DNA of 64,000 nt from assembly GCF_988243305.1 (NCBI RefSeq), contig NZ_OZ547136.1; one strand, written 5' to 3'. Shown piece by piece: positions 2,270 through 23,022 of this stretch. The notes below the pieces were generated by a model that was not told where the DNA came from, searched no databases, and saw only the letters and a list, made by a program, of their open reading frames with translations. The position numbers and the translations under genes are program-made. Each line of letters opens with the position of its first letter. Positions within the stretch are counted from its first letter, which is position 1.

Positions 2270-3142
2270 ATGAATCCGTCTGATGCCATTGAGGCAATTG
2301 AAAAACCGCTCTCCTCCCTGCCTTACTCACTTTCCCGTCACATCCTGGAACATCTGCGCAAACTCACCAGTCACGAACCCGTGATTGGCATTATGGGTAA
2401 AAGCGGGGCCGGTAAATCCTCACTCTGTAATGCACTGTTTCAGGGGGAGGTCACCCCGGTCAGTGATGTTCACGCCGGCACCCGGGAAGTGCGGCGCTTC
2501 CGTCTGAGTGGCCACGGTCACAGCATGGTTATCACTGACCTGCCCGGGGTGGGCGAGAGCCGGGACAGGGATGCAGAGTATGAAGCCCTGTACCGTGACA
2601 TTCTGCCCGAACTGGACCTGGTGCTGTGGCTGATTAAAGCCGATGACCGCGCCCTGTCTGTGGATGAGTATTTCTGGCGACACATCCTGCACCGGGGACA
2701 TCAGCAGGTGCTGTTTGTGGTGACGCAGGCCGACAAAACGGAGCCCTGCCATGAATGGGATATGGCCGGCATTCAGCCTTCTCCCGCACAGGCACAGAAC
2801 ATTCGGGAGAAAACGGAGGCGGTATTCCGTCTGTTCCGGCCCGTACATCCGGTTGTTGCCGTATCGGCCCGCACCGGCTGGGAACTGGATACGCTGGTCA
2901 GTGCGCTAATGACAGCACTTCCCGACCATGCCGCCAGTCCCCTGATGACCCGCCTGCAGGACGAGCTGCGCACGGAATCTGTCCGCGCTCAGGCCCGTGA
3001 ACAGTTTACCGGTGCGGTGGACCGGATATTTGACACGGCGGAGAGCGTCTGTGTTGCCTCTGTTGCCCGTACGGTTCTGCGTGCCGTCCGTGACACGGTG
3101 GTCTCTGTTGCCCGCGCTGTATGGAACTGGATTTTCTTCTGA
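2270..3142 (+). CDS. yeeP: YeeP/YfjP/YkfA-family GTPase (50S ribosome-binding GTPase-like)
   Basis: ORF 2231..3142; P-loop GIMGKSGAGKSSLCN and G3-like DLPGVGE motifs; ORF-track start is GTG at 2231, first in-frame ATG (MNPSD...) is at 2270; start choice uncertain. Confidence 0.7.
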   Translation: MNPSDAIEAIEKPLSSLPYSLSRHILEHLRKLTSHEPVIGIMGKSGAGKSSLCNALFQGEVTPVSDVHAGTREVRRFRLSGHGHSMVITDLPGVGESRDRDAEYEALYRDILPELDLVLWLIKADDRALSVDEYFWRHILHRGHQQVLFVVTQADKTEPCHEWDMAGIQPSPAQAQNIREKTEAVFRLFRPVHPVVAVSARTGWELDTLVSALMTALPDHAASPLMTRLQDELRTESVRAQAREQFTGAVDRIFDTAESVCVASVARTVLRAVRDTVVSVARAVWNWIFF

Positions 3143-3226
3143 ACAGTCTGCCAGGGAAATGCCTGATAACATTACGTTAACCAACTGAAAACATGACACA
3201 AACCCCTCATACTCCTCCTGTTTCTC

Positions 3227-3255
3227 TTGCGTGACCGCCTTGTCGTTAATAGAAT
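3227..3255 (+). promoter_or_regulatory. candidate sigma70 promoter of flu/agn43 (TTGCGT-17 bp-TAGAAT)
   Basis: -35-like ttgcgt 3227-3232, 17-bp spacer, -10-like tagaat 3250-3255, immediately upstream of the GATC cluster. Confidence 0.5.
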
Positions 3256-3260
3256 AAAAC

Positions 3261-3296
3261 GATCGATAAAACAGGTATTGATCGTTGCTATCGATC
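3261..3296. promoter_or_regulatory. three clustered GATC (Dam) sites; agn43 Dam/OxyR phase-variation region
   Basis: GATC at 3261-3264, 3280-3283 and 3293-3296 within 36 bp, about 220 bp upstream of the flu ATG; matches the known three-GATC OxyR operator architecture of agn43. Confidence 0.7.
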
Positions 3297-3513
3297 GTTT
3301 ATAGTGGTTAATGGTCTGCGAAAAGGCAGCTGAATCTCTTCATCATGCAGAACGGAATTGCACACAACGGACTGATACTTCTCTGGCGGATGAGAGAGGG
3401 GAAGCATTTATGTCCGGGAAAAACCACTTTATCTGAGCATGCTGTTTTGTACCTGCCGGTATCCACATTTGTGGGTACCGGCTTTTTTATTCACCCTCTG
3501 TAAGGAAAAGCTG

Positions 3514-6500: not shown

Positions 6501-6633
6501 CCTGCAGGCCGGACTGGAAGCCCGTGTCCGGGAAAATATCACCCTGGGCGTTCAGGCAGGTTATGTCCACAGCGTCAGCGGCAGCAGCGCTGAAGGCTAT
6601 AACGGTCAGGCCACGCTGAATGTGACCTTCTGA
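3514..6633 (+). CDS. flu: antigen 43 self-associating autotransporter
   Basis: ORF 3439..6633; canonical Ag43 N-terminus MKRHLNTSYRLVWNHITGTLVVASELARS begins at ATG 3514 after aaggaaaag; long beta-helical passenger with repetitive G/T/N-rich repeats and C-terminal beta-barrel ending in TLNVTF. Confidence 0.9.
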   Translation: MKRHLNTSYRLVWNHITGTLVVASELARSRGKRAGVAVALSLAAVTSVPALAADKVVQAGETVNDGTLTNHDNQIVLGTANGMTISTGLEYGPDNEANTGGQWIQNGGIANNTTVTGGGLQRVNAGGSVSDTVISAGGGQSLQGQAVNTTLNGGEQWVHEGGIATGTVINEKGWQAIKSGAVATDTVVNTGAEGGPDAENGDTGQTVYGDAVRTTINKNGRQIVAAEGTANTTVVYAGGDQTVHGHALDTTLNGGYQYVHNGGTASGTVVNSDGWQIVKNGGVAGNTTVNQKGRLQVDAGGTATNVTLKQGGALVTSTAATVTGINRLGAFSVVEGKADNVVLENGGRLDVLTGHTATNTRVDDGGTLDVRNGGTATTVSMGNGGVLLADSGAAVSGTRSDGKAFSIGGGQADALMLEKGSSFTLNAGDTATDTTVNGGLFTARGGTLAGTTTLNNGAILTLSGKTVNNDTLTIREGDALLQGGSLTGNGSVEKSGSGTLTVSNTTLTQKAVNLNEGTLTLNDSTVTTDVIAQRGTALKLTGSTVLNGAIDPTNVTLASGATWNIPDNATVQSVVDDLSHAGQIHFTSTRTGKFVPATLKVKNLNGQNGTISLRVRPDMAQNNADRLVIDGGRATGKTILNLVNAGNSASGLATSGKGIQVVEAINGATTEEGAFIQGNKLQAGAFNYSLNRDSDESWYLRSENAYRAEVPLYASMLTQAMDYDRILAGSRSHQTGVSGENNSVRLSIQGGHLGHDNNGGIARGATPESSGSYGFVRLEGDLLRTEVAGMSVTAGVYGAAGHSSVDVKDDDGSRAGTVRDDAGSLGGYLNLIHNASGLWADIVAQGTRHSMKASSDNNDFRVRGWGWLGSLETGLPFSITDNLMLEPQLQYTWQGLSLDDGQDNASYVKFGHGSAQHVRAGFRLGSHHDMNFGKGTSSRDTLRGSAKHSVRELPVNWWVQPSVIRTFSSRGGMSMGTAAAGSNMTFSPSQNGTSLDLQAGLEARVRENITLGVQAGYVHSVSGSSAEGYNGQATLNVTF

Positions 6634-6753
6634 CAGAACCATCGCCTCTCTGTGGTCCCGGTCATCATGATCGGGACCCGGACCGGCGCAACGGATATTC
6701 AACGCCACATTCGCTGGCATTAACAATAACATGATATTCATCACGGAGTGACT

Positions 6754-9270
6754 ATGTTACAGATAGTCGGCGCGCTGATCCTGCTGATCGCAGGATTTGC
6801 CATTCTTCGCCTTTTGTTCAGAGCATTAATCAGCACGGCTTCTGCGCTGGCAGGGCTCATATTGCTGTGTCTGTTCGGCCCGGCCTTACTGGCTGGCTAT
6901 ATCACCGAACGCATAACCCGGTTGTTCCATATTCGCTGGCTGGCAGGCGTATTTCTGACGATTGCCGGAATGATCATCAGCTTCATGTGGGGACTTGATG
7001 GTAAACATATCGCGCTGGAGGCTCACACCTTTGACTCTGTGAAATTTATTCTGACCACCGCTCTCGCCGGTGGTCTGCTGGCTGTTCCCCTGCAGATCAA
7101 AAACATTCAGCAGAACGGGATCACACCAGAAGATATCAGCAAGGAAATTAACGGGTATTACTGCTGTTTTTATACTGCCTTTTTCCTTATGGCGTGTTCT
7201 GCATGCGCACCATTGATCGCGTTACAGTACGATATTTCACCGTCACTGATGTGGTGGGGCGGGTTGTTGTACTGGCTGGCTGCATTAGTGACGCTGCTAT
7301 GGGCGGCCAGCCAAATCCAGGCGCTGAAAAAACTGACCTGTGCCATCAGCCAGACACTGGAAGAACAACCGGTGCTCAACAGTAAATCGTGGCTGACCAG
7401 TTTGCAAAACGATTACAGCCTTCCTGACTCACTGACGGAGCGCATCTGGCTGACGCTCATTTCTCAACGGATTTCCCGGGGAGAGCTGAGGGAATTTGAA
7501 CTGGCAGACGGAAACTGGTTACTGAACAATGCCTGGTATGAAAGAAACATGGCAGGGTTTAACGAACAGTTGAAAGAGAACCTGTCATTCACACCTGATG
7601 AACTGAAAACGCTCTTCCGGAACCGCCTGAATTTATCACCGGAAGCGAATGACGATTTTCTCGATCGTTGCCTGGACGGCGGTGACTGGTATCCCTTTTC
7701 AGAAGGTCGCCGTTTTGTATCATTCCATCACGTGGATGAGCTTCGTATCTGTGCCTCCTGCGGGCTGACAGAAGTACATCATGCCCCGGAAAATCATAAG
7801 CCGGATCCGGAATGGTACTGCTCCTCTCTTTGTCGCGAAACAGAAACACTGTGTCAGGAAATTTATGAACGCCCTTACAACAGCTTTATTTCCGATGCAA
7901 CGGCGAATGGTCTGATTCTCATGAAACTGCCGGAAACCTGGAGTACAAATGAGAAAATGTTTGCTTCCGGAGGGCAGGGACATGGGTTTGCCGCTGAACG
8001 GGGAAACCATATTGTCGACAGAGTCCGTCTGAAAAACGCACGGATCCTCGGTGATAATAATGCCAGAAATGGAGCAGACAGACTGGTCAGCGGAACAGAA
8101 ATCCAGACGAAATATTGTTCAACTGCAGCCCGTAGCGTCGGTGCGGCATTCGACGGACAAAACGGACAGTATCGTTACATGGGAAATAATGGCCCCATGC
8201 AACTGGAAGTCCCCCGTGATCAGTATGCCGGCGCTGTTGAAACCATGAGGAATAAGATCCGCGAAGGTAAAGTACCCGGTGTAACCGATCCCGCAGAAGC
8301 ATCCCGGCTGATTCGTCGGGGACATCTGACTTATACTCAGGCCCGTAATATCACCCGGTTCGGGACCATCGAATCGGTCACTTATGATATTGCCGAGGGT
8401 TCGGTTGTCAGTCTGGCGGCCGGAGGGATCAGTTTTGCCCTGACGGCATCGGTCTTCTGGCTCAGCACCGGCGATCGCGATGCTGCCCTGCAGACAGCTG
8501 CTGTCCAGGCAGGAAAAACCTTCACCCGCACACTGGCTGTCTACGTCACAACCCAGCAACTCCACCGGCTCAGTGTTGTTCAGGGTATGCTGAAGCACAT
8601 TGATTTTTCGACTGCCAGCCCGACTGTTCGACTGGCTCTTCAGAAGGGGACCGGTGCAGGAAATATCAGTGCCCTGAACAAAGTGATGAAGGGTACGCTG
8701 GTGACATCTCTGGCACTGGTAGCTGTCACAACCGGCCCTGACATGATCAAAATGTTGCGGGGACGGATCTCCGGTACGCAGTTCATCAGGAATCTTGCCG
8801 TGGCATCTTCCGGTGTGGCAGGTGGTGCTGTCGGGTCAGTGGCGGGCGGAATACTGTTCAGTCCACTGGGACCATTTGGTGCACTGACAGGGCGTGTGGT
8901 TGGCGGTGTTCTGGGGGGAATGATTGCCTCCGCTGTATCAGGAAAAATTGCCGGAGCGCTGGTTGAAGAAGATCGCGTCAAAATTCTGGCAATGATTCAG
9001 GAGCAGGTGACATGGCTTGCCGGCAGTTTCCTGCTGACCGGACATGAGATTGAAAATCTGAACGAGAATCTGGCCCGTGTTATCGATCAGAATGCTCTGG
9101 AGATCATTTTCGCCGCCGGTATACAACAACGGGCCGCGACCAATATGTTAATCAAACCACTGGTGGTCAGTATCATCAGGCAACGCCCCGTCATGGAATA
9201 TGATGCATCCCATCTCGGCAATATGGTTAACCGACTGGAAGAAGCATTACCCCCGGAGTTACCGGCATAA
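6754..9270 (+). CDS. yeeR: YeeR-like inner membrane protein (enlarged, about 838 aa)
   Basis: ORF 6748..9270; several hydrophobic N-terminal helices and a glycine-rich hydrophobic C-terminal block; sits directly after flu as yeeR does in CP4-44; ATG at 6754 preferred over GTG 6748 (ggag 5 nt upstream). Confidence 0.55.
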   Translation: MLQIVGALILLIAGFAILRLLFRALISTASALAGLILLCLFGPALLAGYITERITRLFHIRWLAGVFLTIAGMIISFMWGLDGKHIALEAHTFDSVKFILTTALAGGLLAVPLQIKNIQQNGITPEDISKEINGYYCCFYTAFFLMACSACAPLIALQYDISPSLMWWGGLLYWLAALVTLLWAASQIQALKKLTCAISQTLEEQPVLNSKSWLTSLQNDYSLPDSLTERIWLTLISQRISRGELREFELADGNWLLNNAWYERNMAGFNEQLKENLSFTPDELKTLFRNRLNLSPEANDDFLDRCLDGGDWYPFSEGRRFVSFHHVDELRICASCGLTEVHHAPENHKPDPEWYCSSLCRETETLCQEIYERPYNSFISDATANGLILMKLPETWSTNEKMFASGGQGHGFAAERGNHIVDRVRLKNARILGDNNARNGADRLVSGTEIQTKYCSTAARSVGAAFDGQNGQYRYMGNNGPMQLEVPRDQYAGAVETMRNKIREGKVPGVTDPAEASRLIRRGHLTYTQARNITRFGTIESVTYDIAEGSVVSLAAGGISFALTASVFWLSTGDRDAALQTAAVQAGKTFTRTLAVYVTTQQLHRLSVVQGMLKHIDFSTASPTVRLALQKGTGAGNISALNKVMKGTLVTSLALVAVTTGPDMIKMLRGRISGTQFIRNLAVASSGVAGGAVGSVAGGILFSPLGPFGALTGRVVGGVLGGMIASAVSGKIAGALVEEDRVKILAMIQEQVTWLAGSFLLTGHEIENLNENLARVIDQNALEIIFAAGIQQRAATNMLIKPLVVSIIRQRPVMEYDASHLGNMVNRLEEALPPELPA

Positions 9271-9345
9271 CGGCTATTCTGCGCCTTTTACGCTTTATCA
9301 CCTGATTTGTCAGTGTCATCGTCATGACTCAGAGAGGTAAATACC

Positions 9346-9801
9346 ATGATTCACCTGTTCAAAACCTGCATGATTACCGCCTTCATTCTGGGGTTAACGT
9401 GGTCTGCCCCACTCCGGGCACAGGATCAACGTTACATCAGTATACGCAATACAGATACGATATGGCTCCCGGGAAATATTTGTGCTTACCAGTTCCGGCT
9501 GGATAATGGCGGAAACGATGAAGGATTTGGCCCCCTCACCATCACTCTGCAACTCAAAGACAAATATGGTCAGACGCTGGTGACCAGAAAAATGGAAACG
9601 GAAGCTTTTGGTGACAGTAATGCCACGCGAACCACAGACGCATTTCTGGAAACGGAGTGCGTGGAAAATGTCGCCACAACCGAAATCATCAAAGCAACTG
9701 AAGAAAGTAACGGCCATCGTGTCAGTCTGCCGTTATCGGTTTTCAATCCCCAGGACTACCATCCACTGCTGATTACCGTTTCCGGAAAAAACGTTAACTG
9801 A
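9346..9801 (+). CDS. hypothetical secreted protein (signal peptide)
   Basis: ORF with N-terminal signal-like sequence MIHLFKTCMITAFILGLTWSAPLRA; gagagg RBS 8 nt upstream. Confidence 0.5.
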   Translation: MIHLFKTCMITAFILGLTWSAPLRAQDQRYISIRNTDTIWLPGNICAYQFRLDNGGNDEGFGPLTITLQLKDKYGQTLVTRKMETEAFGDSNATRTTDAFLETECVENVATTEIIKATEESNGHRVSLPLSVFNPQDYHPLLITVSGKNVN

Positions 9802-9879
9802 TCCCTGAAGTCAGTTTCATGCTTCAGCCTCTGTCACAACGCGTGGCAGAGGCTTTTTATTTATCAGGAGAAAACAGAT

Positions 9880-10113
9880 ATGCCGGGTTACACAGAGTAT
9901 GTCCTGGCTGAAGGATCTTTCTCATACGGGCAGGCGGTTGCTGTCATAACCGCTTACCGCAATGTGTTTATCCAGGATGACCCGGGAATGCATTTCCGTC
10001 GGGTTATCCGCAACGCGGAAGGTCAGCGACGCTGGCGCTGCCGGAATTCTGAACCCGATGCCGGAAAGGTGCTTAATACGCGGCTCGCCAGTGACGGTCT
10101 TCTCAGACAATAA
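9880..10113 (+). CDS. small island protein (DUF905/YkfF-like by position)
   Basis: 77-aa ORF with aggag RBS; occupies the slot of the small DUF905 gene preceding DUF932 in CP4-type modules; family assignment from memory only. Confidence 0.4.
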
Positions 10114-10212
10114 ACGTCATTCATTTCACCCATCAGGCCGCGTCTTCTCCGGGAGACGTGGCTTTTTCATTTATTACACCAGTAAATCTTAACCACCGAT
10201 AAGGAGCAAATT

Positions 10213-11031
10213 ATGCGACTAGCCAGTCGTTTTGGTTATGCGAACCAGATACGCCGTGACCGTCCGCTGACACACGAAGAACTGATGCACTATGTGCCGG
10301 GGATTTTCGGGGAAGATAAACACACGTCCCGAAGCCAGAACTATACGTACATCCCCACCATCACCGTACTGGAAAGCCTGCAGCGGGAAGGCTTTCAGCC
10401 ATTCTTCGCCTGCCAGACCCGTGTGCGCGACCCGGGCCGCCGGGGATACACAAAACACATGCTGCGTCTGCGGCGGGCCGGAGAGATAAACGGAGAACAT
10501 GTCCCTGAAATTATTCTGCTCAACTCTCATGACGGTACCTCCAGCTACCAGATGCTGCCGGGTTACTTCAGGTTCGTCTGCCAGAACGGATGCGTCTGTG
10601 GTCAGTCTCTGGGGGAAGTGCGTGTTCCGCACCGGGGAAATGTGGTGGACAGAGTCATTGAAGGGGCTTACGAGGTGGTGGGCGTGTTTGACCGGATTGA
10701 GGAAAAGCGTGATGCCATGCAGTCGCTGATTCTGCCGCCACCGGCACGCCAGGCGCTGGCACAGGCGGCACTGACTTACCGTTATGGTGACGAACATCAG
10801 CCCGTCACCACCGCCGACATTCTGACGCCACGACGCCGGGAGGATTACGGTAAGGACCTGTGGAGTGCTTATCAGACCATTCAGGAGAATATGCTGAAAG
10901 GCGGAATTTCAGGTCGCAGCGCTAAAGGAAAACGTATCCATACCCGTGCCATTCACAGCATTGACACTGACATTAAGCTCAACCGCGCATTGTGGGTGAT
11001 GGCGGAAACCCTGCTGGAGAGCCTGCGCTGA
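10213..11031 (+). CDS. DUF932 family protein (YfjQ/YafZ-like)
   Basis: 272-aa ORF with aaggag RBS; length and position match the YfjQ/YafZ family of CP4 prophage-like islands. Confidence 0.6.
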   Translation: MRLASRFGYANQIRRDRPLTHEELMHYVPGIFGEDKHTSRSQNYTYIPTITVLESLQREGFQPFFACQTRVRDPGRRGYTKHMLRLRRAGEINGEHVPEIILLNSHDGTSSYQMLPGYFRFVCQNGCVCGQSLGEVRVPHRGNVVDRVIEGAYEVVGVFDRIEEKRDAMQSLILPPPARQALAQAALTYRYGDEHQPVTTADILTPRRREDYGKDLWSAYQTIQENMLKGGISGRSAKGKRIHTRAIHSIDTDIKLNRALWVMAETLLESLR

Positions 11032-11085
11032 TTCAGCCATTACCCTGAAAACCACGCATTTATTTGTCCTTTAAGGAGTCATTTC

Positions 11086-11571
11086 ATGAAAACCATTTCA
11101 CATAATTCCACCACATCTTCTGTTTCCGTAACCGCTGCATCAGGGAATGACCAGCCTCAGTTGGTTGCCACCCTCGTCCCTGATGAACAGCGCATCAGCT
11201 TCTGGCCGCAGCACTTTGGCCTCATTCCACAGTGGGTGACCCTGGAGCCCCGTGTCTTCGGCTGGATGGACCGTCTGTGTGAAGACTACTGCGGTGGTAT
11301 CTGGAATCTGTACACCCTGAACAACGGCGGGGCATTTATGGCACCCGAACCGGATGACGATGATGACGAAACATGGGTACTGTTCAATGCCATGAACGGT
11401 AACCGCGCTGAAATGAGTCCGGAAGCTGCCGGCATTGCTGCCTGTCTGATGACGTACAGTCATCATGCCTGTCGTACGGAGTGTTATGCCATGACGGTCC
11501 ATTATTACCGGCTGCGGGATTACGCCCTGCAGCATCCGGAATGCAGCGCCATTATGCGCATCATCGACTGA
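11086..11571 (+). CDS. antirestriction protein (ArdB/KlcA-like, YfjX/YafX family)
   Basis: 161-aa ORF, aaggag RBS, acidic DDDDDE stretch; conserved position upstream of the radC-like gene. Confidence 0.6.
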   Translation: MKTISHNSTTSSVSVTAASGNDQPQLVATLVPDEQRISFWPQHFGLIPQWVTLEPRVFGWMDRLCEDYCGGIWNLYTLNNGGAFMAPEPDDDDDETWVLFNAMNGNRAEMSPEAAGIAACLMTYSHHACRTECYAMTVHYYRLRDYALQHPECSAIMRIID

Positions 11572-11586
11572 ATGGAGAGAAGTACA

Positions 11587-12063
11587 ATGCAACAGCTTTC
11601 CTTTCTGCCCGGAGAGATGACGCCCGGCGAGCGCAGCCTCATTCAACGGGCCCTGAAAACCCTGGACCGCCATCTTCATGAACCCGGCGTGGCCTTCACC
11701 TCCACCCGTGCGGCACGAGAATGGCTGATTCTGAACATGGCGGGACTGGAGCGTGAAGAGTTCCGGGTGCTGTATCTGAACAACCAGAATCAGCTGATTG
11801 CCGGTGAAACCCTCTTCACCGGCACCATCAACCGCACGGAAGTCCATCCCCGTGAAGTGATTAAACGCGCCCTGTATCACAATGCCGCTGCTGTGGTGCT
11901 GGCACACAATCACCCGTCCGGTGAAGTCACACCCAGCAAGGCAGACCGCCTTATCACGGAACGTCTGGTACAGGCACTGGGCCTGGTGGATATCCGGGTG
12001 CCGGACCATCTGATAGTCGGTGGCAGCCAGGTTTTCTCCTTTGCCGAACATGGTCTGCTTTAA
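11587..12063 (+). CDS. yeeS: RadC-like JAB-domain protein
   Basis: JAMM-like motif HNHPSGEVTPSKADRLIT; K-12 YeeS-like N-terminus MQQLSFLPGEMTPGERS at ATG 11587 (ORF-track start 11572). Confidence 0.75.
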   Translation: MQQLSFLPGEMTPGERSLIQRALKTLDRHLHEPGVAFTSTRAAREWLILNMAGLEREEFRVLYLNNQNQLIAGETLFTGTINRTEVHPREVIKRALYHNAAAVVLAHNHPSGEVTPSKADRLITERLVQALGLVDIRVPDHLIVGGSQVFSFAEHGLL

Positions 12064-12125
12064 CCCGTCACAACCACATCACACCTGTTTTCACTTTTAT
12101 CTTCTGTCTTCAGAGGTATCCCACT

Positions 12126-12347
12126 ATGAAAATCATCACCCGTGGCGAAGCCATGCGTATTCACCGTCAGCATCCGGCATCCCGTCTTTTTCCGTTCTGT
12201 ACCGGCAAATACCGCTGGCACGGCAGTGCTGAAGCGTATACCGGTCGTGAAGTGCAGGATATTCCCGGTGTGCTGGCCGTATTTGCAGAACGCCGTAAGG
12301 ACAGTTTTGGTCCGTATGTCCGGCTGATGAGCGTCACCCTGAACTGA
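12126..12347 (+). CDS. yeeT: DUF987 small protein
   Basis: 73-aa ORF MKIITRGEAMRIHRQHPASRLFPFCTGKYRWHG, in the conserved position upstream of cbeA. Confidence 0.6.
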   Translation: MKIITRGEAMRIHRQHPASRLFPFCTGKYRWHGSAEAYTGREVQDIPGVLAVFAERRKDSFGPYVRLMSVTLN

Positions 12348-12509
12348 TGTTCCGTCACCCGGAAAACGAGTACGACTGGCTGAGCTCAGACGCCGCTGTG
12401 GATGAGGTCCTGCTCATCAACGAATACACCTTTACCGAAGCCGGTCTGCGCGCCGGCTGACCCGTCATCGTTAAACTATCATTCACCGATTTTCTGTGAG
12501 GATTTTATC

Positions 12510-12878
12510 GTGTCAGACACACTTTCCGGGACAACGCATCCCGATGACAATGACGACCATCCCTGGTGGGGACTACCCTGCACAGTGACGCCCTGTTTCG
12601 GCGCCCGTCTGGTGCAGGAGGGTAACCGCCTGCATTACCTTGCCGACCGCGCCGGTATCAGAGGCCTGTTCAGCGATGCAGATGCGTACCACCTGGACCA
12701 GGCCTTTCCGCTGCTGATGAAACAACTGGAACTCATGCTCACCAGCGGTGAACTGAATCCCCGCCATCAGCATACCGTCACGCTGTATGCAAAAGGTCTG
12801 ACCTGCAAAGCTGACACTCTCGGTAGCGGTGGTTACGTTTATCTGGCTGTTTATCCGACGCCCGAAACGAAAAAGTAA
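12510..12878 (+). CDS. cbeA: CbeA antitoxin (YeeU family, type IV TA)
   Basis: In-frame GTG at 12510 gives a 122-aa product [38 protein letters not shown]...; the ORF-track start at 12402 is probably an upstream extension. Confidence 0.8.
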
Positions 12879-12967
12879 ACCACCGGAATAACCTTCTGCT
12901 CCGGCCTGGTGCTTTCACCACGCCACTTTTCCATTTTTCATCTCTGCATATCAGGAAAACCTTCAGT

Positions 12968-13342
12968 ATGAAAACATTACCCGATACACACGTACGGGAG
13001 GCATCGAGCTGCCCGTCTCCCGTCACCATCTGGCAGACTCTGCTCTCCCGACTACTGGGCCAGCATTACGGCCTTACACTGAATGACACACCGTTCGCCG
13101 ATGAACGTGTGATTGAGCAGCATATTGAAGCTGGCATTTCACTGTGTGATGCGGTGAATTTTCTCGTGGAAAAATACGCGCTGGTGCGTACCGACCAGCC
13201 GGGATTCAGCACTTGTCCCCGCTCTCAGTTAATAAACAGTATTGATATCCTCCGGGCTCGCAGGGCGACCGGCCTGATGACCCGCGACAATTACAGAACG
13301 GTAAATAACATTACCCTGGGTAAGCATCCGGAGAAACGATGA
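12968..13342 (+). CDS. cbtA: CbtA toxin (YeeV family; cytoskeleton-targeting)
   Basis: 124-aa ORF immediately downstream of cbe[71 protein letters not shown]. Confidence 0.8.
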
Positions 13343-13827
13343 AACTTTCCCTGATGCTGGAAGCCGACAGAATTAATGTGCAGGCACTGAACATGGGGCG
13401 AATTGTCGTTGACGTCGATGGTGTTAATCTCACTGAACTGATTAACAAGGTCGCTGAAAACGGTTATTCACTCCGCGTGGTGGAGGAATCCGACCAACAG
13501 TCAACCTGCACACTACCACCGTTTGCAACCCTTGCCGGCATACGCTGCAGTACCGCACATATCACGGAAAAGGATAACGCCTGGCTGTACTCGCTGTCGC
13601 ATCAGACCAGTGACGTTGGTGAATCAGAATGGATTCATTTCACAGGTAGCGGATATCTGTTACGTACCGATGCGTGGTCATATCCGGTTCTGCGGCTTAA
13701 ACGCCTGGGGCTGTCAAAAACGTTCCGTCGTCTGGTTATCACACTTACCCGACGTTATGGCGTCAGTCTCATTCATCTGGATGCCAGCGCTGAATGCCTG
13801 CCGGGTTTACCCACTTTCAACTGGTAA
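13339..13827 (+). CDS. yeeW: YeeW-like protein
   Basis: 162-aa ORF overlapping the cbtA stop by 4 bp (ATGA), the position yeeW holds in CP4-44. Confidence 0.5.
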
Positions 13828-13838
13828 CCAGGAACAAC

Positions 13839-14036
13839 ATGAAATCATTAACCACGGAAACCGCACTGGATATTCTGATTGCGTGGCTGCAGGACAATAT
13901 CGACTGCGAATCGGGAATTATCTTTGACAACAATGAGGATAAAACGGATTCAGCAGCACTGTTGCCCTGTATCGAACAGGCCAGAGAGGATATCCGTACC
14001 CTGCGCCAACTGCAGCTTCAGCACCAGAACCGGTGA
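13839..14036 (+). CDS. small hypothetical protein (65 aa)
   Basis: ATG at 13839 preceded by aggaa; followed by a clear terminator. Confidence 0.35.
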   Translation: MKSLTTETALDILIAWLQDNIDCESGIIFDNNEDKTDSAALLPCIEQAREDIRTLRQLQLQHQNR

Positions 14037-14066
14037 GTCTTACTCACCAGACTTCATTCCACTGAC

Positions 14067-14097
14067 GCCAGCCTGAACAGGGCTGGCATTTTCATTT
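14067..14097 (+). terminator. rho-independent terminator
   Basis: Stem gccagcc (14067-14073) / ggctggc (14081-14087), loop tgaacag, then attttcattt. Confidence 0.6.
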
Positions 14098-14753
14098 ATC
14101 TGCAAAAAGGAATATCGATTATGTCTGATATCACAGCCTACCGTCCGGAAGTGGTCAACGAGAATACGGACGTTATCTGCTCAACCAGCATCCGCCGCAT
14201 TCTGGCTGTACGAAAGAGTTCACTGCTGCAAATCGACACAATTATCCGGCATCAAGTGAGCGATATCAGTTAACAGATATAGATGGAGAAGATGCTTTTA
14301 TCCGGATTGGTTCTATCGCGATGGTGCGAGTACTACTTGATGCAATGAAGCCTGTCGAGGAAGATGACGAGTAACAGAGCTCGGTATCTCAATCAGGAGC
14401 TGATTGTCCTGGTTCGATGCCGAAAACCAGTGATTTTTCGTGTTGGTATCTGTGTTGGTATAAGATGATATTGTTTATTATTAACAATTTTAAATCATGA
14501 GGTTAAGTCACATGTTTGAGTCCGGCCTTCGCACCTTCGCACCTTCGCACCATCGGAACATCAATAGACATCAACGGACGTTTTTTTATGACTGAAATCC
14601 GCGCCACACAAGGCTTTTCGCTATTTTTCGCTCAACCTAAGTCAACCTACATCAACTTACTGATGTGGATACAGCTACAGCTGCGGCTATACCCCGATTC
14701 GATAATGTTTGTACCCACACAAAACCCTTGAAAGGCTACAAGGCTGAAATTGT

Positions 14754-15238
14754 CTAAACCATAGAGATGATTTTTATGATCCAGTCTTTCTCTTGTTGAG
14801 ATAGTTCCAGTTTGCTCACTCGTGTTAAGAAGGTATTGATCACCTGAACATCCGAATTGGTGAGCCTATTTAATAGAGCGGGTGGTATACCTTTACTAAC
14901 AATCGCTTTGCGGTGACTTTCGTAGTTTTTATTACTCATTGTTGATCCTAAAAAATCATTGTATGGCGGCATTGATCGTTTCCAGCAACCTTTACTTACT
15001 CACTTCGAACTGCATCCTCGTAGACTGTTCCACTACAATAATCGAAAAGGCGCGGATGTCCATTCAGGTATCCCGCTAATACGTATAGCAATAACAATGG
15101 CTTATGCGGCGCGCGCTGTTCACCCTTGTGCCAGATTTTTATATTGGCAATTGCCTGCTGTAGCGATTTACTGGAAGCTATTGATATCCCTGGCAGTGAA
15201 ATAATTGCGATCATGCTCGCAAATTTTCTGCTGTTCAA
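14754..15238 (-). pseudogene. possible disrupted gene (two adjacent short ORFs, 80 aa and 72 aa)
   Basis: ORFs 14996..15238 and 14754..14972 on the same strand in different frames separated by 23 bp; divergent from the HNH gene; no recognisable family. Confidence 0.25.
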
Positions 15239-15317
15239 GCCTGCAAGTGAAGATATATTACCTTGATCTCATTTGTTTTTTTGCTGCCTGTTCTGAGAAC
15301 GTATAAGGACATTCTCC

Positions 15318-15968
15318 ATGAATAAACTCCCTGATCATCTTCCGCGGCGGTATATCATCGAAGCTATCCATTTATGGGATGCGGGAGAAACTCATCAGTT
15401 CCAGCCTGCGCGGTTGTATGAGATTGAATATCATGGCCGACGTTACCCCTCGAAGGCGATTGCTGGCATCGCAGCGACATTGATGACGGGGACGCAATTT
15501 ACCCCTGCGGATTTCACCGGCGGAATAAAATCTAAATGTGTCAAGCTACTCATAGAGCAGGGATTTCATATTCATCTGGATAAAGCCGCTGCGGCTCCCA
15601 TAGCCGACGTTCTGTTCCCGGATGAGTTGCCGTCGCAGGAGACATACCTTGAAGGTGCGGCGATAAAGGTGACAGTAAACCGCTATGAACGCGATAAAAA
15701 GGCCCGAGATAAAGCGGTCGAACATCATGGATGCCAGTGCAACGTATGCGGTGTTGATCTGGTGAAGATCTATGGTGATATCGCTGAAGGCTTTATCCAT
15801 GTGCATCACCTGGTGCCGCTGTCAGCCATTAAAGAGGATTACCAGCTGGATCCAGTTAATGATTTGCTGCCTGTGTACCCTAATTGCCATGCGATGTTGC
15901 ACCGACGCAAACCACCGTTTACGCCGGAGCAGTTAAAAGCGCTGATGGATGCGAATAAATCAAATTAA
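15318..15968 (+). CDS. HNH endonuclease family protein
   Basis: 216-aa ORF; C-terminal HNH signature CQCNVCG ... HVHHLVPLS ... NCHAMLH (two Cys pairs flanking His/Asn catalytic positions); N-terminal about 120 aa of unknown function. Confidence 0.7.
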   Translation: MNKLPDHLPRRYIIEAIHLWDAGETHQFQPARLYEIEYHGRRYPSKAIAGIAATLMTGTQFTPADFTGGIKSKCVKLLIEQGFHIHLDKAAAAPIADVLFPDELPSQETYLEGAAIKVTVNRYERDKKARDKAVEHHGCQCNVCGVDLVKIYGDIAEGFIHVHHLVPLSAIKEDYQLDPVNDLLPVYPNCHAMLHRRKPPFTPEQLKALMDANKSN

Positions 15969-15975
15969 TGAACGC

Positions 15976-17020: not shown

Positions 17021-18127
17021 TTAGTTTTGTACTGTGACTTTATTATCCTTCACAGAAATTAAAACTGAATCCATCACTGCTTTGCCGCCTGCAGTTTCAC
17101 CGCCAATAATTAATAAACTATTATTCCAGGGCAATGATACTCCGTAGGCCCGACCTTGCGATAATTCACCCGATTTATCCCATTTCCCGTTATACCAAAG
17201 ATGAATATCAACGCTATATGATTTTTTCAGGCCTTCATGCGCATAGTTCTTACCGTTCTGGTAATTTTCTCGTGAACCTTTGAATCCGGCCCCTCCAGCA
17301 AATATAAGAGAATCATTGCTTATCCCCGCAAAACCGCCAGCGACGCCATCTGGTGATGAGACGGGATCAAGCTTATTCCATTTTAAATTATCACCGGTGA
17401 AGTCAAGTTCAAATACGGCATCCGTTCGCAATCCTGGTTTGGCTTCGCCATTAATAAGCCAGGTTTTATCACCTTTATTCACAACCGCCGCACCAGCCGT
17501 TCCGTACCAGGGAGATTCGCCAGCGTAACTCCATTGCTGTGTTGAGGGATCAAAAGACAACAGAAACTTATTGAAGAAATAATCTTCTGCTTTTTTGTCA
17601 AAATAGTAGGCGTTGATTTTATCTATAGCGGTTGAATCTTTTCCAGCTTCGTTGAGATCTTCAAAATAGCCATTGAAGATATTCTGGTTAACACCGCCAG
17701 TAACATAAGCCTTGCCGTTGTGTACAAAAGTCACATGGCCCGCCATGCCCATCGGCGCGTGCGACATCAATTTAACCCAGCTATTGGTTTTGGGGTTGTA
17801 TTTGTGTACGTCATTAAATACCTGAGTCAAGCCCTCGCTGTTTTTGCCAATGCCGCCAAACACATACAGATTGCCATCAATAAATGCAGAGGTTGCTTGA
17901 TCTCTCGGTCCGCCAGGGAATGCAGCTAACGCTGTCCATCTTTTATCTTTGGCCTGTGTATCCAGCTTGTACCATGCCGTACCTGCGCTACCTAAACCAA
18001 TGTAGACAGTGTCGTTATCAATTGCTCCGGTACCACTTTTAAATGGCACAGGAGTTTCCGGTAATACAGACGCGTTTGCGGCAAATGAAGCCATTATGAT
18101 AGTAAGCGCCGTTATTGTTTTATTCAT
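17021..18127 (-). CDS. nanM: N-acetylneuraminate epimerase (sialic acid mutarotase, Kelch repeats)
   Basis: ORF 17021..18235; signal peptide MNKTITALTIIMASFAANA at ATG 18127 preceded by aggag; 368 aa. Confidence 0.85.
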   Translation of the reverse strand: MNKTITALTIIMASFAANASVLPETPVPFKSGTGAIDNDTVYIGLGSAGTAWYKLDTQAKDKRWTALAAFPGGPRDQATSAFIDGNLYVFGGIGKNSEGLTQVFNDVHKYNPKTNSWVKLMSHAPMGMAGHVTFVHNGKAYVTGGVNQNIFNGYFEDLNEAGKDSTAIDKINAYYFDKKAEDYFFNKFLLSFDPSTQQWSYAGESPWYGTAGAAVVNKGDKTWLINGEAKPGLRTDAVFELDFTGDNLKWNKLDPVSSPDGVAGGFAGISNDSLIFAGGAGFKGSRENYQNGKNYAHEGLKKSYSVDIHLWYNGKWDKSGELSQGRAYGVSLPWNNSLLIIGGETAGGKAVMDSVLISVKDNKVTVQN

Positions 18128-18146
18128 TGTGACTGTCTCCTGTCTA

Positions 18147-18863
18147 CTACAGTTTAAATGACACACCAATGCGATAACTGTTTTCCGATAAATTATCTCT
18201 GCCGTTGTAAACACCCTGACGGTCAAGGTAGTCATATTCTATGTATGGCGTAATATCGGGCGTCATATGGTATTGTAGAACAAATGCATTTTCCGTCGCC
18301 CATTTCTTATGGTTTGCATAGCGATAATCGTTCTGTTTACTGTATAGCGTCGTTTGCCATGCGAAGGTGAAATCACTATTAATATGGTAAGTGACATATC
18401 CATCCCAACGATGAACGTTATCACGAGACATATCACCAGATAAGTCTTGTTGTCGGTAAGCTTTCCAGTCGTAACGATAGCGAATGCCAAAATTAAGATC
18501 TTTTGTCGCGTCCCAGGACAGTTTTACGTAGGGTCCGTAGCGTGTGCCATTGCTGCTAAAATGCGTTAACATTCCCGGGCGCACCGTCCATTGATCATCA
18601 AGTTTAATCGCGTAATTAACTTCAACCTGAACATCATTGAGTGCGGCATTTTCCTTTTTATTATCATGAATGGTATTCCAGGTATTACTTTCCATGCTTG
18701 CCCACCATCCATTTTGCCATCCCTCACTGACTTTGAGTCGAGTCTCATAGGCGTGGCTTCCACTACGATATCCACCACGTACGTCCAGTGTCGCAGCCTG
18801 AGAAATTAATGGGGACGAAAAGCACAGTAATAATACGCTAGAAAGTATTTTAGCCTTTTTCAT
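18147..18863 (-). CDS. nanC: N-acetylneuraminic acid outer membrane channel (KdgM family)
   Basis: ORF 18147..18872; MKKAKILSSVLLLCFSSPLISQA signal peptide from ATG 18863; beta-barrel-like alternating pattern. Confidence 0.85.
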   Translation of the reverse strand: MKKAKILSSVLLLCFSSPLISQAATLDVRGGYRSGSHAYETRLKVSEGWQNGWWASMESNTWNTIHDNKKENAALNDVQVEVNYAIKLDDQWTVRPGMLTHFSSNGTRYGPYVKLSWDATKDLNFGIRYRYDWKAYRQQDLSGDMSRDNVHRWDGYVTYHINSDFTFAWQTTLYSKQNDYRYANHKKWATENAFVLQYHMTPDITPYIEYDYLDRQGVYNGRDNLSENSYRIGVSFKL

Positions 18864-20316
18864 AAATTTCACTCATTTGTAGGATACAGAAAGCAATACA
18901 AAGCCCGCATAAACAATTAGCATTTATGTTGTGTAATATTTTTTTGCCAGGCTTATAGTGTCTTTGGCAACCGGTAGCTGTATTTTATATTTTTTGTATA
19001 ATATCTCCTGTGAAAAATCTCTTTCCACATTATTTAAATAAACAGAGGGCCAGATTAAATACCTGAGTATAAAATCTCTGCTGATGTTTAATTGATTTGA
19101 ATTTTCGTAAGCTATATCGCTTACTCAATCCATTTTACCCAGAGTCATAAAATAGAGTGTCTGTTGATCTCATTTTCATATTCCTTTCAGACTGAAGTGC
19201 GTTTTCATCACCCGATGAGAAAGAACTGAAGTGATGTTTGCCATAGATTACGAGATGCCCAGTCTCATTGACTATCGCGGTGCACCTTTATACCTGTTAT
19301 ACCAGATCAAAAATCACGCAATCCATACAACAAAACCAGATTTGCAATTCGTGTCACAAAATATGTCGATCTTTTCCTAAGAAGCAGATGCCATGTGAAG
19401 CCAGACGAACACTTGCATTGGTCTTCAAAAACTAAAGGTTTTCTTTTAACAATCTGTTTTGTAAATAATTTATTTAGAATCTAAACAAAGAAAGCTTTGC
19501 AAGCTAACTCAGTGAGCTTGGTGAAAATAAGTGTTTACCCGCCATCAGGCTGAGTATAATTCTCATCATGAAATATGTTTCTTGGTTTGTGGCTTGTAAC
19601 TGGTCACTCCTGATGTCGATCTGGAGAGGCTTGTTGATGTTGGTGTTTTCAGGATGATGTTTCACTTAGTTTGTTTGCCGTATCGCCCGGCGAATAGCTG
19701 TGATTGAGGAAGGTTTAAGTCGTAGTGACCAAAGCCATAGTTACCAACGGATGTAGATGAAAAAGCGTCGCCTGCGTTCCCCCATATCTCCAGGATAAAA
19801 GGGAATGTAACAATCTCATGGCCTAAGCTGACGAACCAGGCAGGAATAATCGCTAGGGATCTAAGAATTAGCATGATAATAGCCACTAAGAAATTACTGC
19901 GTTCCATGAAATAGCCATTTTGTGGCAAATGGAGTTGACTAATAATGTCATATGTGAGACGGCTAGTTGAACGAATATTAAATTTTGCTGAATTTTTTAT
20001 GTTGATTTTACTTGTTACAGAACATATCACATGATATATAGATAAGATTAGTTGCATTAATGATGAGGGTTATTATTAGATTCGTATCAGATTGATAAAT
20101 ATATAAAGGTACATAGCATGCAAGAGCATGGCGTTTGTATGGCAAAGTTATTATAAGTAACTATCGCTACTCCATTTAAGTTCGCTCAGAAGAACTGGTC
20201 CACTTACGTTAGTTATTAAGCAAACGTTCGCTTTTATAAACATAATCAGGATTAAAATGTTGGATTATTGCTAACCCAGCACAGCTAGTGCGCGTCTGTA
20301 ATTATAAGGGAAAACG

Positions 20317-20919
20317 ATGAAGAATAAGGCTGATAACAAAAAAAGGAACTTCCTTACCCATAGTGAAATCGAGTCACTCCTTAAAGCAGCAAATACCGGG
20401 CCTCATGCAGCACGTAATTATTGTCTGACTTTGCTTTGTTTTATTCATGGTTTCCGGGCGAGTGAAATTTGTCGATTGAGGATTTCGGATATTGATCTTA
20501 AGGCAAAGTGTATATATATCCATCGATTAAAAAAAGGCTTTTCAACAACGCACCCGCTATTGAACAAAGAAGTTCAGGCTTTAAAAAACTGGTTGAGTAT
20601 CCGTACTTCTTATCCGCATGCTGAGAGCGAGTGGGTATTTTTATCACGTAAGGGGAATCCGCTTTCTCGGCAACAGTTTTACCATATTATCTCGACTTCT
20701 GGTGGTAATGCCGGGTTGTCACTGGAGATTCATCCGCACATGTTACGCCATTCGTGTGGTTTTGCTTTGGCGAATATGGGAATAGATACGCGACTTATCC
20801 AGGATTATCTTGGGCATCGCAATATTCGTCATACTGTCTGGTATACCGCCAGCAATGCAGGGCGTTTTTACGGCATCTGGGATAGAGCCAGAGGACGACA
20901 GCGTCACGCTGTTTTATAG
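20317..20919 (+). CDS. fimB: type 1 fimbriae switch recombinase FimB (tyrosine recombinase)
   Basis: 200-aa ORF MKNKADNKKRNFLTHSEIESLL...; catalytic motif HPHMLRHSCGFALA...LGHRNIRHTVWYT. Confidence 0.95.
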   Translation: MKNKADNKKRNFLTHSEIESLLKAANTGPHAARNYCLTLLCFIHGFRASEICRLRISDIDLKAKCIYIHRLKKGFSTTHPLLNKEVQALKNWLSIRTSYPHAESEWVFLSRKGNPLSRQQFYHIISTSGGNAGLSLEIHPHMLRHSCGFALANMGIDTRLIQDYLGHRNIRHTVWYTASNAGRFYGIWDRARGRQRHAVL

Positions 20920-21396
20920 AGATAGTTGAGATACCAGGGATGGTGTTAAAAACTACATTATTCTTACGATATATCAAAAATGATTAACCATTTATTAATT
21001 GATGTTATTGTAAGTGTGATTCTTAATTATCATAATAAACATTAAGTTAACCATACCCATACAAAATCCAATGGTTTATGTTCTTCAAAATAAATAAACA
21101 AAATCATTCATAAATTTACACATCACTTAAATTCTCCTGTTTCCACACTTTTTTCTTTATTTTTTAAGCAACTGGAAGTTAATCTTCTGCAATCTATTGT
21201 TATATTGAATCAAATCAATGAAAATAGATGTTGTCACATCAGTGATATTTTATTTTTGTATGATATTTAATGTAATTGACTGATAGCCACATCACTTCGT
21301 GTGTGGTTATCTTTTTATCTATTGGGCTAATTTTGACCGATTGAGGTTTCCTATAGGTATTCATTCAAATATATCTCAGTCAGGAGTACTACTATT

Positions 21397-21993
21397 GTGA
21401 GTAAACGTCGTTATCTTACCGGTAAAGAAGTTCAGGCCATGATGCAGGCGGTTTGTTACGGGGCAACGGGAGCCAGAGATTATTGTCTTATTCTGTTGGC
21501 ATATCGGCATGGGATGCGTATTAGTGAACTGCTTGATCTGCATTATCAGGATCTTGACCTTAATGAAGGTCGAATAAATATTCGCCGACTGAAGAACGGA
21601 TTTTCTACCGTTCACCCGTTACGTTTTGATGAGCGTGAAGCCGTGGAACGCTGGACCCAGGAACGCGCTAACTGGAAAGGCGCTGACCGGACCGACGCTA
21701 TATTTATTTCTCGCCGCGGGAGTCGGCTTTCTCGCCAGCAGGCCTATCGCATTATTCGCGATGCAGGTATTGAAGCTGGAACCGTAACGCAGACTCATCC
21801 TCATATGTTAAGGCATGCTTGCGGTTATGAACTGGCGGAGCGTGGTGCAGATACTCGTTTAATTCAGGATTATCTCGGGCATCGAAATATTCGCCATACT
21901 GTGCGTTATACCGCCAGTAATGCTGCTCGTTTTGCCGGATTATGGGAAAGAAATAATCTCATAAACGAAAAATTAAAAAGAGAAGAGGTTTGA
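21397..21993 (+). CDS. fimE: type 1 fimbriae switch recombinase FimE (ON-to-OFF)
   Basis: 198-aa ORF from GTG 21397 with caggag RBS; paralogous to FimB (HPHMLRHACGYELA...LGHRNIRHTVRYT). Confidence 0.95.
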   Translation: MSKRRYLTGKEVQAMMQAVCYGATGARDYCLILLAYRHGMRISELLDLHYQDLDLNEGRINIRRLKNGFSTVHPLRFDEREAVERWTQERANWKGADRTDAIFISRRGSRLSRQQAYRIIRDAGIEAGTVTQTHPHMLRHACGYELAERGADTRLIQDYLGHRNIRHTVRYTASNAARFAGLWERNNLINEKLKREEV

Positions 21994-22040: not shown

Positions 22041-22049
22041 TTGGGGCCA
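22041..22049. repeat. fimS left inverted repeat (IRL)
   Basis: ttggggcca. Confidence 0.9.
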
Positions 22050-22059
22050 AACTGTCCAT

Positions 22060-22089
22060 ATCATAAATAAGTTACGTATTTTTTCTCAA
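22060..22089 (-). promoter_or_regulatory. fimA promoter inside fimS, here facing away from fimA (phase-OFF)
   Basis: On the minus strand: TTGAGA (22089-22084), 18-bp spacer, TATGAT (22065-22060), next to IRL; no comparable rightward promoter next to IRR. Confidence 0.55.
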
Positions 22090-22345
22090 GCATAAAAATA
22101 TTAAAAAACGACAAAAAGCATCTAACTGTTTGATATGTAAATTATTTCTCTTGTAAATTAATTTCACATCACCTCCGCTATATGTAAAGCTAACGTTTCT
22201 GTGGCTCGACGCATCTTCCTCATTCTTCTCTCCAAAAACCACCTCATGCAATATAAAAATCTATAAATAAAGATAACAATAGAATATTAAGCCAACAAAT
22301 AAACTGAAAAAGTTTGTGCGCGATGCTTTCCTCTATGAGTCAAAA

Positions 22346-22354
22346 TGGCCCCAA
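22346..22354. repeat. fimS right inverted repeat (IRR)
   Basis: tggccccaa, reverse complement of IRL. Confidence 0.9.
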
Positions 22355-22473: not shown

Positions 22474-23022
22474 ATGAAAATTAAAACTCTGGCAATCGTT
22501 GTTCTGTCGGCTCTGTCCCTCAGTTCCGCAGCGGCTCTGGCCGATACTACGACGGTAAATGGTGGGACCGTTCACTTTAAAGGGGAAGTTGTTAACGCCG
22601 CTTGCGCAGTTGATGCAGGCTCTGCTGATCAAACCGTTCAGTTAGGGCAGGTTCGTACCGCATCGCTGGCACAAGAAGGAGCAACCAGTTCTGCTGTCGG
22701 TTTTAACATTCAACTGAACGATTGTGACACTACTGTTGCAGATAAAGCTGCTATTGCCTTCCTTGGTACCGCAATTGATGGAACTCATCCTAACGTATTA
22801 GCTTTGCAGAGTTCAGCTGCGGGTAGCGCAACAAAAGTTGGTGTGCAGATCCTGGACAGAACGGGTGCTGCGCTGGCGCTGGACGGTGCGACATTTAGTG
22901 CACAAACAACCCTGAATAACGGAACCAACACCATTCCGTTCCAGGCGCGTTATTTTGCAACCGGTGCCGCAACCCCAGGTGCTGCTAATGCGGATGCGAC
23001 CTTCAAGGTTCAGTATCAATAA
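22474..23022 (+). CDS. fimA: type 1 fimbrial major subunit
   Basis: ORF 22417..23022; [23 protein letters not shown] signal peptide from ATG 22474 after aaaggaaag. Confidence 0.95.

Follow-up and report, generated by a model that had tools for sequence, protein, structure and literature searches.

The 1453-bp spacer between nanC and fimB in the window (the whole 64-kb stretch of DNA that was analysed) is very probably the orthologous and intact nanC-fimB regulatory spacer of Escherichia coli, as in K-12. We read it as an intact control region because every published site that could be obtained is present at the K-12 spacing, and from this agreement in sequence we infer that the sites work here as they do in K-12. 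The control region, including the conservation of its NagC sites across strains, is already known, and the finding is correct but ordinary. The nanC (yjhA)-fimB region of K-12 has reportedly been studied by El-Labany in 2003, Sohanpal in 2004 and 2007, Condemine in 2005, McVicker in 2011, and Moores in 2014.

The nanC-fimB locus

The spacer and the genes that bound it are laid out as follows.

18147..18863, minus strand: nanC, sialic-acid outer-membrane channel, first gene of nanCMS (ORF call; 717 bp, as in K-12)
18864..20316: nanC-fimB intergenic regulatory region, 1453 bp, AT-rich, nanC and fimB being divergent
18964..18991, plus strand: promoter-like TTGGCA-16-TATATT pointing to fimB (10 of 12 matches; a candidate)
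20317..20919, plus strand: fimB, tyrosine recombinase of the type 1 fimbrial switch (603 bp, the K-12 length)

A preliminary description of this DNA had stated that a 1.45-kb spacer is kept between the two genes, and this is accurate: its coordinates were exact, the genes are divergent, and the 1453 bp compare with 1455 bp in K-12 MG1655 (NC_000913.3 4539502..4540956). The locus and its flanking genes are the same as in K-12, with 95.9% identity overall; nanC is 99.4% identical to K-12 nanC, and the NanC protein matches the KdgM family (PF06178). The G+C content is 36.5% in the spacer vs 48.7% in the whole window. The spacer has been described as 1456 or 1458 bp long and H-NS-bound, with two RNA polymerase binding peaks, and the TTGGCA/TATATT hexamer pair is listed for it (PMC3946193). 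A consensus promoter and terminator scan of the spacer was uninformative, since it gave fewer promoter-like matches than shuffled sequences did, and an Rfam search of 18000-21500 at a permissive threshold returned no RNA family. Downstream, the window has fimE, fimA, and the fimS element (314 bp, with inverted repeats of 9 bp at 22041 and 22346), so that the target of FimB, and with it the output of the circuit, is intact.

Spacer matches were found in 5109 of 5426 complete E. coli genomes and are essentially full length in 5020 of them, in agreement with the published presence of nanCMS in about 93% of isolates (PMC10088187). Retention of the spacer is the rule among E. coli; it is not very informative and offers no clue. 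Beyond nanS the window carries another island than K-12. Homology to K-12 begins exactly at the nanS stop codon (15973), so that the differing island, which ends 2.9 kb from the spacer, never touched it. The preliminary description had taken the retained spacer as a sign that the regulatory link is conserved despite the different island; this holds at the level of the sequence, in that the NanR and NagC operators are in place, while the argument from retention carries little weight, both because retention is so common and because the island is so far off.

NanR and NagC operators

The elements were mapped by pairwise alignment to K-12 and by exact and one-mismatch searches, with the GGTATA repeat, reportedly described by Kalivoda (2003 and 2013), as the NanR operator. 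The spacing between ONC1 and ONC2 is 212 bp here and in K-12, and the same distance was reportedly given by Sohanpal in 2007. The NagC operator sequences were taken from Table 1 of PMC3098098, the SlyA and H-NS sites with their offsets from PMC3173223, and the 271-nt leader, ops-like element, MicA target, and Shine-Dalgarno sequence of fimB from PMC3911127. Variation was followed in a 14-genome alignment from nanC to fimB, which comprised the window, its closest match (strain 89-3156, 99.7%), K-12, and eleven more genomes sampled at regular intervals from a list ranked by similarity, and in a second, independent sample of metagenome contigs scanned for ONC1 and ONC2 at a gap of 175-205 nt, which gave 92 matches.

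19289..19303, minus strand: NanR operator core, two exact GGTATA repeats (GGTATAACAGGTATA on the minus strand), identical to K-12
19305..19308: Dam site (GATC) abutting the NanR operator, kept as in K-12
19343..19365, plus strand: NagC operator ONC1, TGCAATTCGTGTCACAAAATATG, 23/23 match to the published 'fimB1' site (PMC3098098 Table 1)
19368..19371: Dam site (GATC) abutting ONC1, kept as in K-12
19555..19577, plus strand: NagC operator ONC2, TATAATTCTCATCATGAAATATG, 22/23 match, with T for the K-12 C at the first (outermost) base

That the spacer carries NanR and NagC operators had been proposed in the preliminary description, with alignment to K-12 as the way to detect their loss. The alignment found them: the NanR repeats and ONC1 are identical to K-12, ONC2 differs at its outermost base only, and the spacing and the distance to the fimB promoter are unchanged. 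The NanR repeats lie at -758 from the inferred fimB start site, compared with the published '760 bp upstream' (PMC3173223), and the block from NanR to ONC2 spans -758 to -470, compared with published sites at about 760 and 470 bp upstream. Three independent published offsets thus fit the mapping, namely the 271-nt leader, the SlyA sites at -194 to -167, and the NanR/NagC sites at -760 to -470.

The NanR repeats are exact in 91 of the 92 metagenome contigs, and the abutting GATC, next to which NanR binds within 5 bp in K-12 (PMC5155068), is present in all 92. ONC1 is identical in 14/14 genomes, and the 95-mer from NanR to ONC1 is exact in 3936 of 5099 genomes. The GATC by ONC1 varies within the species: 74 of the 92 contigs have GATC and the other 18 have GATA.

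The T of ONC2 is a minority allele; the corresponding 50-mer of the window is exact in 227 of 5074 genomes, and T is found in 4/92 metagenome contigs. El Qaidi and Plumbridge (2008) reportedly found that G or C at the outer base of the operator favours NagC. On a matrix built from the nine other validated sites, ONC2 being left out, the operator scores 18.0 bits here vs 18.5 bits in K-12, above most of the validated sites (11.8-20.4 bits), and T occupies the first position in two of the ten validated sites, ONC1 among them. That the C-to-T change abolishes NagC binding was rejected as the main reading by this scoring against the ten validated sites; the substitution is predicted to be harmless and NagC to bind at ONC2.

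SlyA and H-NS sites, promoter, and leader of fimB

The elements closer to fimB are the following.

19844..19853, plus strand: H-NS3, exact vs K-12
19853..19864, plus strand: SlyA site OSA2, CTAGGGATCTAA, 11/12 match, one change creating GATC
19868..19879, plus strand: SlyA site OSA1, exact vs K-12
19873..19882, plus strand: H-NS2, exact vs K-12
20012..20047, plus strand: predicted fimB sigma-70 promoter, -35 TTGTTA (20012..20017), 17-bp gap, -10 TATATA (20035..20040), start at about 20047
20047..20316, plus strand: 5' untranslated leader of fimB, 270 nt here vs the published 271 nt
20129..20140, plus strand: ops-like element, exact vs K-12
about 20272..20309, plus strand: MicA target, exact vs K-12
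20306..20311, plus strand: Shine-Dalgarno sequence AAGGGA, exact, with one A fewer than K-12 before the ATG

OSA1 and OSA2 overlap H-NS2 and H-NS3, and the SlyA sites fall at -194 to -168 from the inferred fimB start site, compared with the published -194 to -167 (PMC3173223). The -35 and -10 hexamers given above are those that the published 271-nt leader would imply (PMC3911127); not a single variable site is found from 19983 to 20057 in 14 genomes. Offsets from the fimB start are equal to those of K-12, and the OSA1 and H-NS sites, the core promoter, the ops-like element, and the MicA target are identical to K-12, as are the NanR repeats and ONC1.

The differences from K-12 are one base each in ONC2 and OSA2, a leader that is 1 nt shorter, 14 differences in the 104-bp core of the loop between the NagC operators, and two changes in GATC sites, K-12 having one at spacer position 575 that is missing here and the window having a new one in OSA2. 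The T in OSA2 is common to 3 of the 14 genomes, and the changed position fits the SlyA consensus in neither allele (PMC3173223). The leader allele with four A residues occurs in 5/14 genomes and in 22 of the 53 contigs that span both genes. The response could differ in strength from that of K-12, given that OSA2 and the spacing from Shine-Dalgarno sequence to ATG are not the same.

The proposed circuit

Judging from these sites, the spacer would consist of two divergent promoter regions and a distant module that activates fimB. NanR would bind the GGTATA repeats, as established in K-12, and NagC would occupy both of its operators, which are 212 bp apart, and would probably loop the DNA, assisted by IHF. 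From 470-760 bp upstream the two regulators would raise the transcription of fimB, and both would also repress nanCMS; in K-12, genetics has shown that the NanR and NagC sites activate fimB (PMC3173223). The activation would be lifted by sialic acid through NanR or by GlcNAc-6-phosphate through NagC, whereupon FimB would drop, fewer cells would switch type 1 fimbriae on, and the sialic-acid porin operon would be induced. Nearer to fimB, SlyA would counteract H-NS, and the long fimB leader would be the target of the small RNA MicA. The genes nanR, nagC, ihfAB, and slyA lie outside the 64-kb window; in K-12 they are far from nanC-fimB.

Strain LF82 has both NagC sites, with no change in sequence or spacing, and there too NagC activates type 1 fimbriae (PMC6013987). 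Genomic SELEX studies treat the spacer as long and H-NS-bound (PMC3946193), and as the single strong target of NanR (PMC5934670).

The DNA between the NagC operators

19385..19545: hypervariable, length-constrained DNA between the NagC operators (core 19417..19520)
19447..19474: candidate IHF core region at the midpoint of ONC1 and ONC2, with loose consensus matches only, in a very variable stretch

In the 14 genomes, the mean pairwise difference is 0.007 in nanC, 0.010 in fimB, and 0.039 in the spacer, compared with 0.0285 at the 178 four-fold sites of nanC and fimB. The spacer contains conserved islands, namely the NanR-ONC1 block (19278-19372), the core of ONC2, the core promoter (19958-20082, where 4 of 125 sites vary), and the leader towards its 3' end. 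Diversity is 0.012-0.015 at the operators and core promoter vs 0.04 over the spacer, which is the pattern expected of functional operators.

The opposite extreme is 19385-19545, with a diversity of 0.12 vs 0.03 at the four-fold sites of nanC and fimB. Its core (19417-19520) has a diversity of 0.125, with 38 of its 104 sites variable and pairwise differences of up to 21% among the 14 genomes, and variable sites are in significant excess over both the four-fold sites (Fisher p = 4e-6) and the remainder of the spacer (p = 1e-10). Over the 8.4 kb in which the window and K-12 were compared, only the variable part of fimA diverges more than the loop. Among 5074 genomes, identity to the 161-bp allele of the window is at least 99% in 255, 95-99% in 948, 90-95% in 2469, and 80-90% in 1402. 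The metagenome sample gives the same picture: in the 85 contigs with a 190-nt gap, the core has a diversity of 0.125 and a maximum difference of 32/104, with a peak of 0.145-0.148 over 19423-19482, and the haplotypes of the loop form clusters of 24, 20, 18, 15, and 5 contigs, or four to five classes of comparable frequency. In the 53 contigs spanning both genes, the core has 0.120, the four-fold sites 0.033, the NanR-ONC1 block 0.013, and the core promoter 0.014. In both samples, which are independent of each other, the core is thus 3.6-4.4 times as diverse as the four-fold sites of nanC and fimB. The possibility that the peak is an artefact of choosing genomes by spacer identity was ruled out by the unbiased population counts and the metagenome sample.

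The ONC1-ONC2 interval has one length in all 14 genomes. The gap is 190 nt in 86 of the 92 contigs, 189 nt in four, and 191 nt in two, and the six off-length contigs represent four different 1-bp events; strict invariance of the loop length was rejected, as these six are off by one base. Common indels, 10 and 12 bp among them, are found only outside 19278-19577 in the 53 contigs. The loop DNA is free, or driven, to change in sequence and not in length, and its fixed length fits a need for helical phase between the NagC sites. One loose, 8-of-9 match to the IHF consensus WATCAANNNNTTR is present at 19462-19474 on the minus strand, and the consensus match of K-12 at 19447-19459 is weakened here; in other strains, two allele classes are devoid of an IHF consensus match at the 8-of-9 level.

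With some hesitation, and as a reading that we hold to be rather unlikely, we mention that the loop may be a lineage-specific tuning element, whose length is selected and whose sequence either is pushed to diverge or persists as old allele classes. Its sequence could then set IHF affinity, intrinsic bend, and H-NS occupancy, and lineages could differ in the baselines or sensitivities of fimB and nanC. Two simpler readings are equally open, namely relaxed constraint together with a raised mutation rate in AT-rich, H-NS-bound DNA, and recombination between old alleles; distances in the loop track those in the flanking genes only weakly (Spearman 0.23). Hypervariability of the loop is not mentioned in the literature that was searched, from which key primary papers on the region were absent.

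Alternative readings of the spacer

A different account of the sequence differences is that the circuit has been quantitatively rewired in this lineage through the T of ONC2, the diverged loop and IHF region, the Dam site in OSA2, and the shorter gap from Shine-Dalgarno sequence to ATG, so that the fimB response to GlcNAc, to SlyA/H-NS, or at the level of translation control would shift. The rarity of the alleles speaks for it: as given above, the ONC2 allele and a loop allele matched at 99% or better occur in only 227 and 255 of 5074 genomes, the OSA2 T is in 3/14 genomes, and the IHF-like core of K-12 is weakened. However, the ONC2 change costs 0.5 bit and places there a base that two validated NagC sites have, the OSA2 position is off the SlyA consensus in both alleles, the 4-A leader is common, and the spacing is unchanged, and we consider rewiring doubtful. 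The reading that the spacer is kept merely for local needs at its ends (the promoters and leaders of nanC and fimB), its middle being neutral filler, is very unlikely; on that view the presence of the spacer would tell nothing of a link from sialic acid to fimB. Outside the operators, 19385-19957 does evolve at or above the rate of four-fold sites, and the NanR repeats and ONC1 would be conserved for the regulation of nanC alone, the NanR module being present upstream of nanXY as well. Yet ONC2, which lies 212 bp beyond the NanR/ONC1 module (itself probably overlapping the nanC promoter), is conserved at a fixed spacing, and in K-12 the NanR and NagC sites activate fimB, as genetics has shown (PMC3173223).

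Hardly credible is a third reading, in which the spacer is not purely regulatory and the longest of its open reading frames is a real small gene.

19662..20057, minus strand: 131-aa open reading frame, a non-gene that overlies the H-NS and SlyA sites and the fimB promoter

This frame starts with ATG and is the single one of at least 60 aa in the spacer, four more being of 45-55 aa; it is full length in 6 of the 14 E. coli genomes, and one strain has an 81-aa PGAP version, annotated as 'hypothetical protein'. Indels of 1 bp break the frame in the other eight, one of which is K-12, and leave 73-105 aa. The polymorphism shows no significant third-position excess (12:15:22 by codon position in the 14 genomes), a Pfam search with the 131-aa sequence gave no match, and PGAP/RefSeq leaves the spacer unannotated in nearly all of the genomes listed. 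The preliminary description had called the frame low-complexity; its peptide appears more hydrophobic than repetitive. The spacer holds no conserved protein-coding gene, as the preliminary description had judged; it had also called this frame AT-rich, and the G+C content is indeed 38.9%. The reading of the spacer as the intact K-12-type control region is the one that we retain.

Related systems and relatives

A module similar to that of NanR is found upstream of nanXY (yjhBC), where 53-77 bp around the GGTATA repeats (19284-19360) show 83-91% identity to the DNA upstream of nanX, with the same repressor and an adjacent GATC; the module recurs in genomes carrying nanXY, and the similarity ends before the NagC loop. 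To our knowledge, no activation of the fimB type is known for nanXY. The NagC loops at nagE-nagB, glmU, and chb likewise have two cooperating 23-bp sites at a constrained distance (PMC5401889). These repress at the promoter, whereas at fimB NagC would activate a promoter 470-680 bp off, and the looped DNA is unusually variable here.

The closest relatives of FimB, in Klebsiella and another genus, have 84-86% identity. They share the fimB-fimE-fimA order and a spacer of 0.8-0.9 kb ahead of fimB, but lack nanC, the neighbours being a LysE exporter with an AsnC-type regulator or a LOG-family gene, and blastn of the E. coli spacer against their fimB upstream DNA found no similarity at E < 0.01. 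The nearest NanC from outside E. coli (78%) lies beside nanM in a sialic-acid cluster of Aeromonas, without fimB. Among the relatives examined, the nanC-fimB link is confined to E. coli. No outgroup spacer was found through the relatives of FimB and NanC, the NanC search yielding also a short, error-prone E. coli contig. When species-representative genomes were scanned for exact copies of a 20-mer of ONC1, one contig was hit, an E. coli fragment binned in a 'Bacteroides' MAG, and the E. coli representative was unmatched.

Implications

A modest by-product of this analysis is the NagC loop, with its hypervariable sequence and nearly fixed length; if its alleles differ in output, they would be natural variants for studying how regulators act 500-750 bp from a promoter. 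The finding that the circuit is intact in sequence supports treating the strain like K-12, and like LF82 for NagC, in its response to sialic acid and GlcNAc. This circuit lets E. coli reduce type 1 fimbriation on host-derived sialic acid and GlcNAc, two signals of inflammation.

Variation within the nanC-fimB regulatory region

The stretch that separates NagC operators ONC1 and ONC2 (19385-19545) is 3.6-4.4 times as diverse as the 4-fold sites of nanC and fimB and falls into 4-5 haplotype classes, while its length is constant to ±1 bp; two independent samples, the aligned E. coli panel of 14 genomes and the 92 metagenome contigs, agree on this pattern. The ONC1 20-mer was invariant across every E. 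coli sequence examined. Of the 92 metagenome contigs, 18 have GATA in place of the GATC beside ONC1 (19368-19371), as do 2 of the 14 genomes; Dam-dependent control at this site, if any, cannot be universal. The NanR operator and its flank (19284-19360) show 83-91% identity to the DNA upstream of nanX-nanY (yjhBC) in genomes carrying that operon, and this segment is a paralogous module.

Both SlyA sites also vary within the species. OSA2 (19853-19864) reads CTAGGGATCTAA in the window vs CTAGGGACCTAA, a variant common to 3 of the 14 genomes, and the change from CTAGGGACCTAA to CTAGGGATCTAA creates a new Dam GATC within the SlyA/H-NS3 overlap. The sixth base of OSA1 (19868-19879) is A in the window and K-12, T in O157:H7 and three further panel genomes, and C in two others.

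A promoter-like element lies on the nanC side of the spacer:

18964-18991, + strand (towards fimB): strong sigma-70-like element TTGGCA-16-TATATT, about 1.3 kb upstream of the fimB ATG

The same TTGGCA / TATATT pair is also given for the nanC-fimB spacer in a genomic SELEX paper (PMC3946193). Poly-T length polymorphisms were observed inside or adjoining this element. At the other end of the spacer, the run of A that separates the Shine-Dalgarno sequence from the fimB ATG (20312-20315) is 4 or 5 nt long within the species, the 4-A allele being found in the window, 5 of the 14 genomes, and 22 of the 53 contigs that span both genes, indicating that the spacing from the Shine-Dalgarno sequence to the fimB start codon is a common polymorphism.

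Flanking DNA

Downstream of fimB lies the invertible element of the fim locus:

22041-22354: fim switch, full-length (314 bp), both 9-bp inverted repeats present

The switch is oriented as in the K-12 reference sequence, and the O157-type deletion is absent from it. The fimA variable region (22669-22868), which differs from K-12 by 13-24%, is the most divergent part of the 8.4 kb common to the window and K-12. Some genomes (e.g., strain SX12, L014 4190-5128) carry an IS1 element at the fimB start site together with a deletion from fimB through most of fimH, and the nanC-side regulatory DNA is retained in them (query coverage 1-1191).

Upstream of nanS, positions 1-15972 are unlike K-12 and, by homology to the annotated strain 89-3156, hold CP4-type island genes (antirestriction, JAB/RadC-like, YeeU/CbtA toxin-antitoxin, and DUF genes) and an HNH endonuclease gene whose end coincides with the nanS stop codon.

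Matches filed under other taxa

The sole match to the ONC1 20-mer among the species-representative genome set was a 3.3-kb contig (L004) filed under an "uncultured Bacteroides" MAG; this contig is E. coli nanC-fimB DNA and plainly reflects misbinning. A nanC-nanM pair was also observed within a cluster for sialic-acid catabolism and sialidase attributed to Aeromonas (L019, L020). Its NanC is 78% identical to that of E. coli, and the pair hints at horizontal spread of nanCM.
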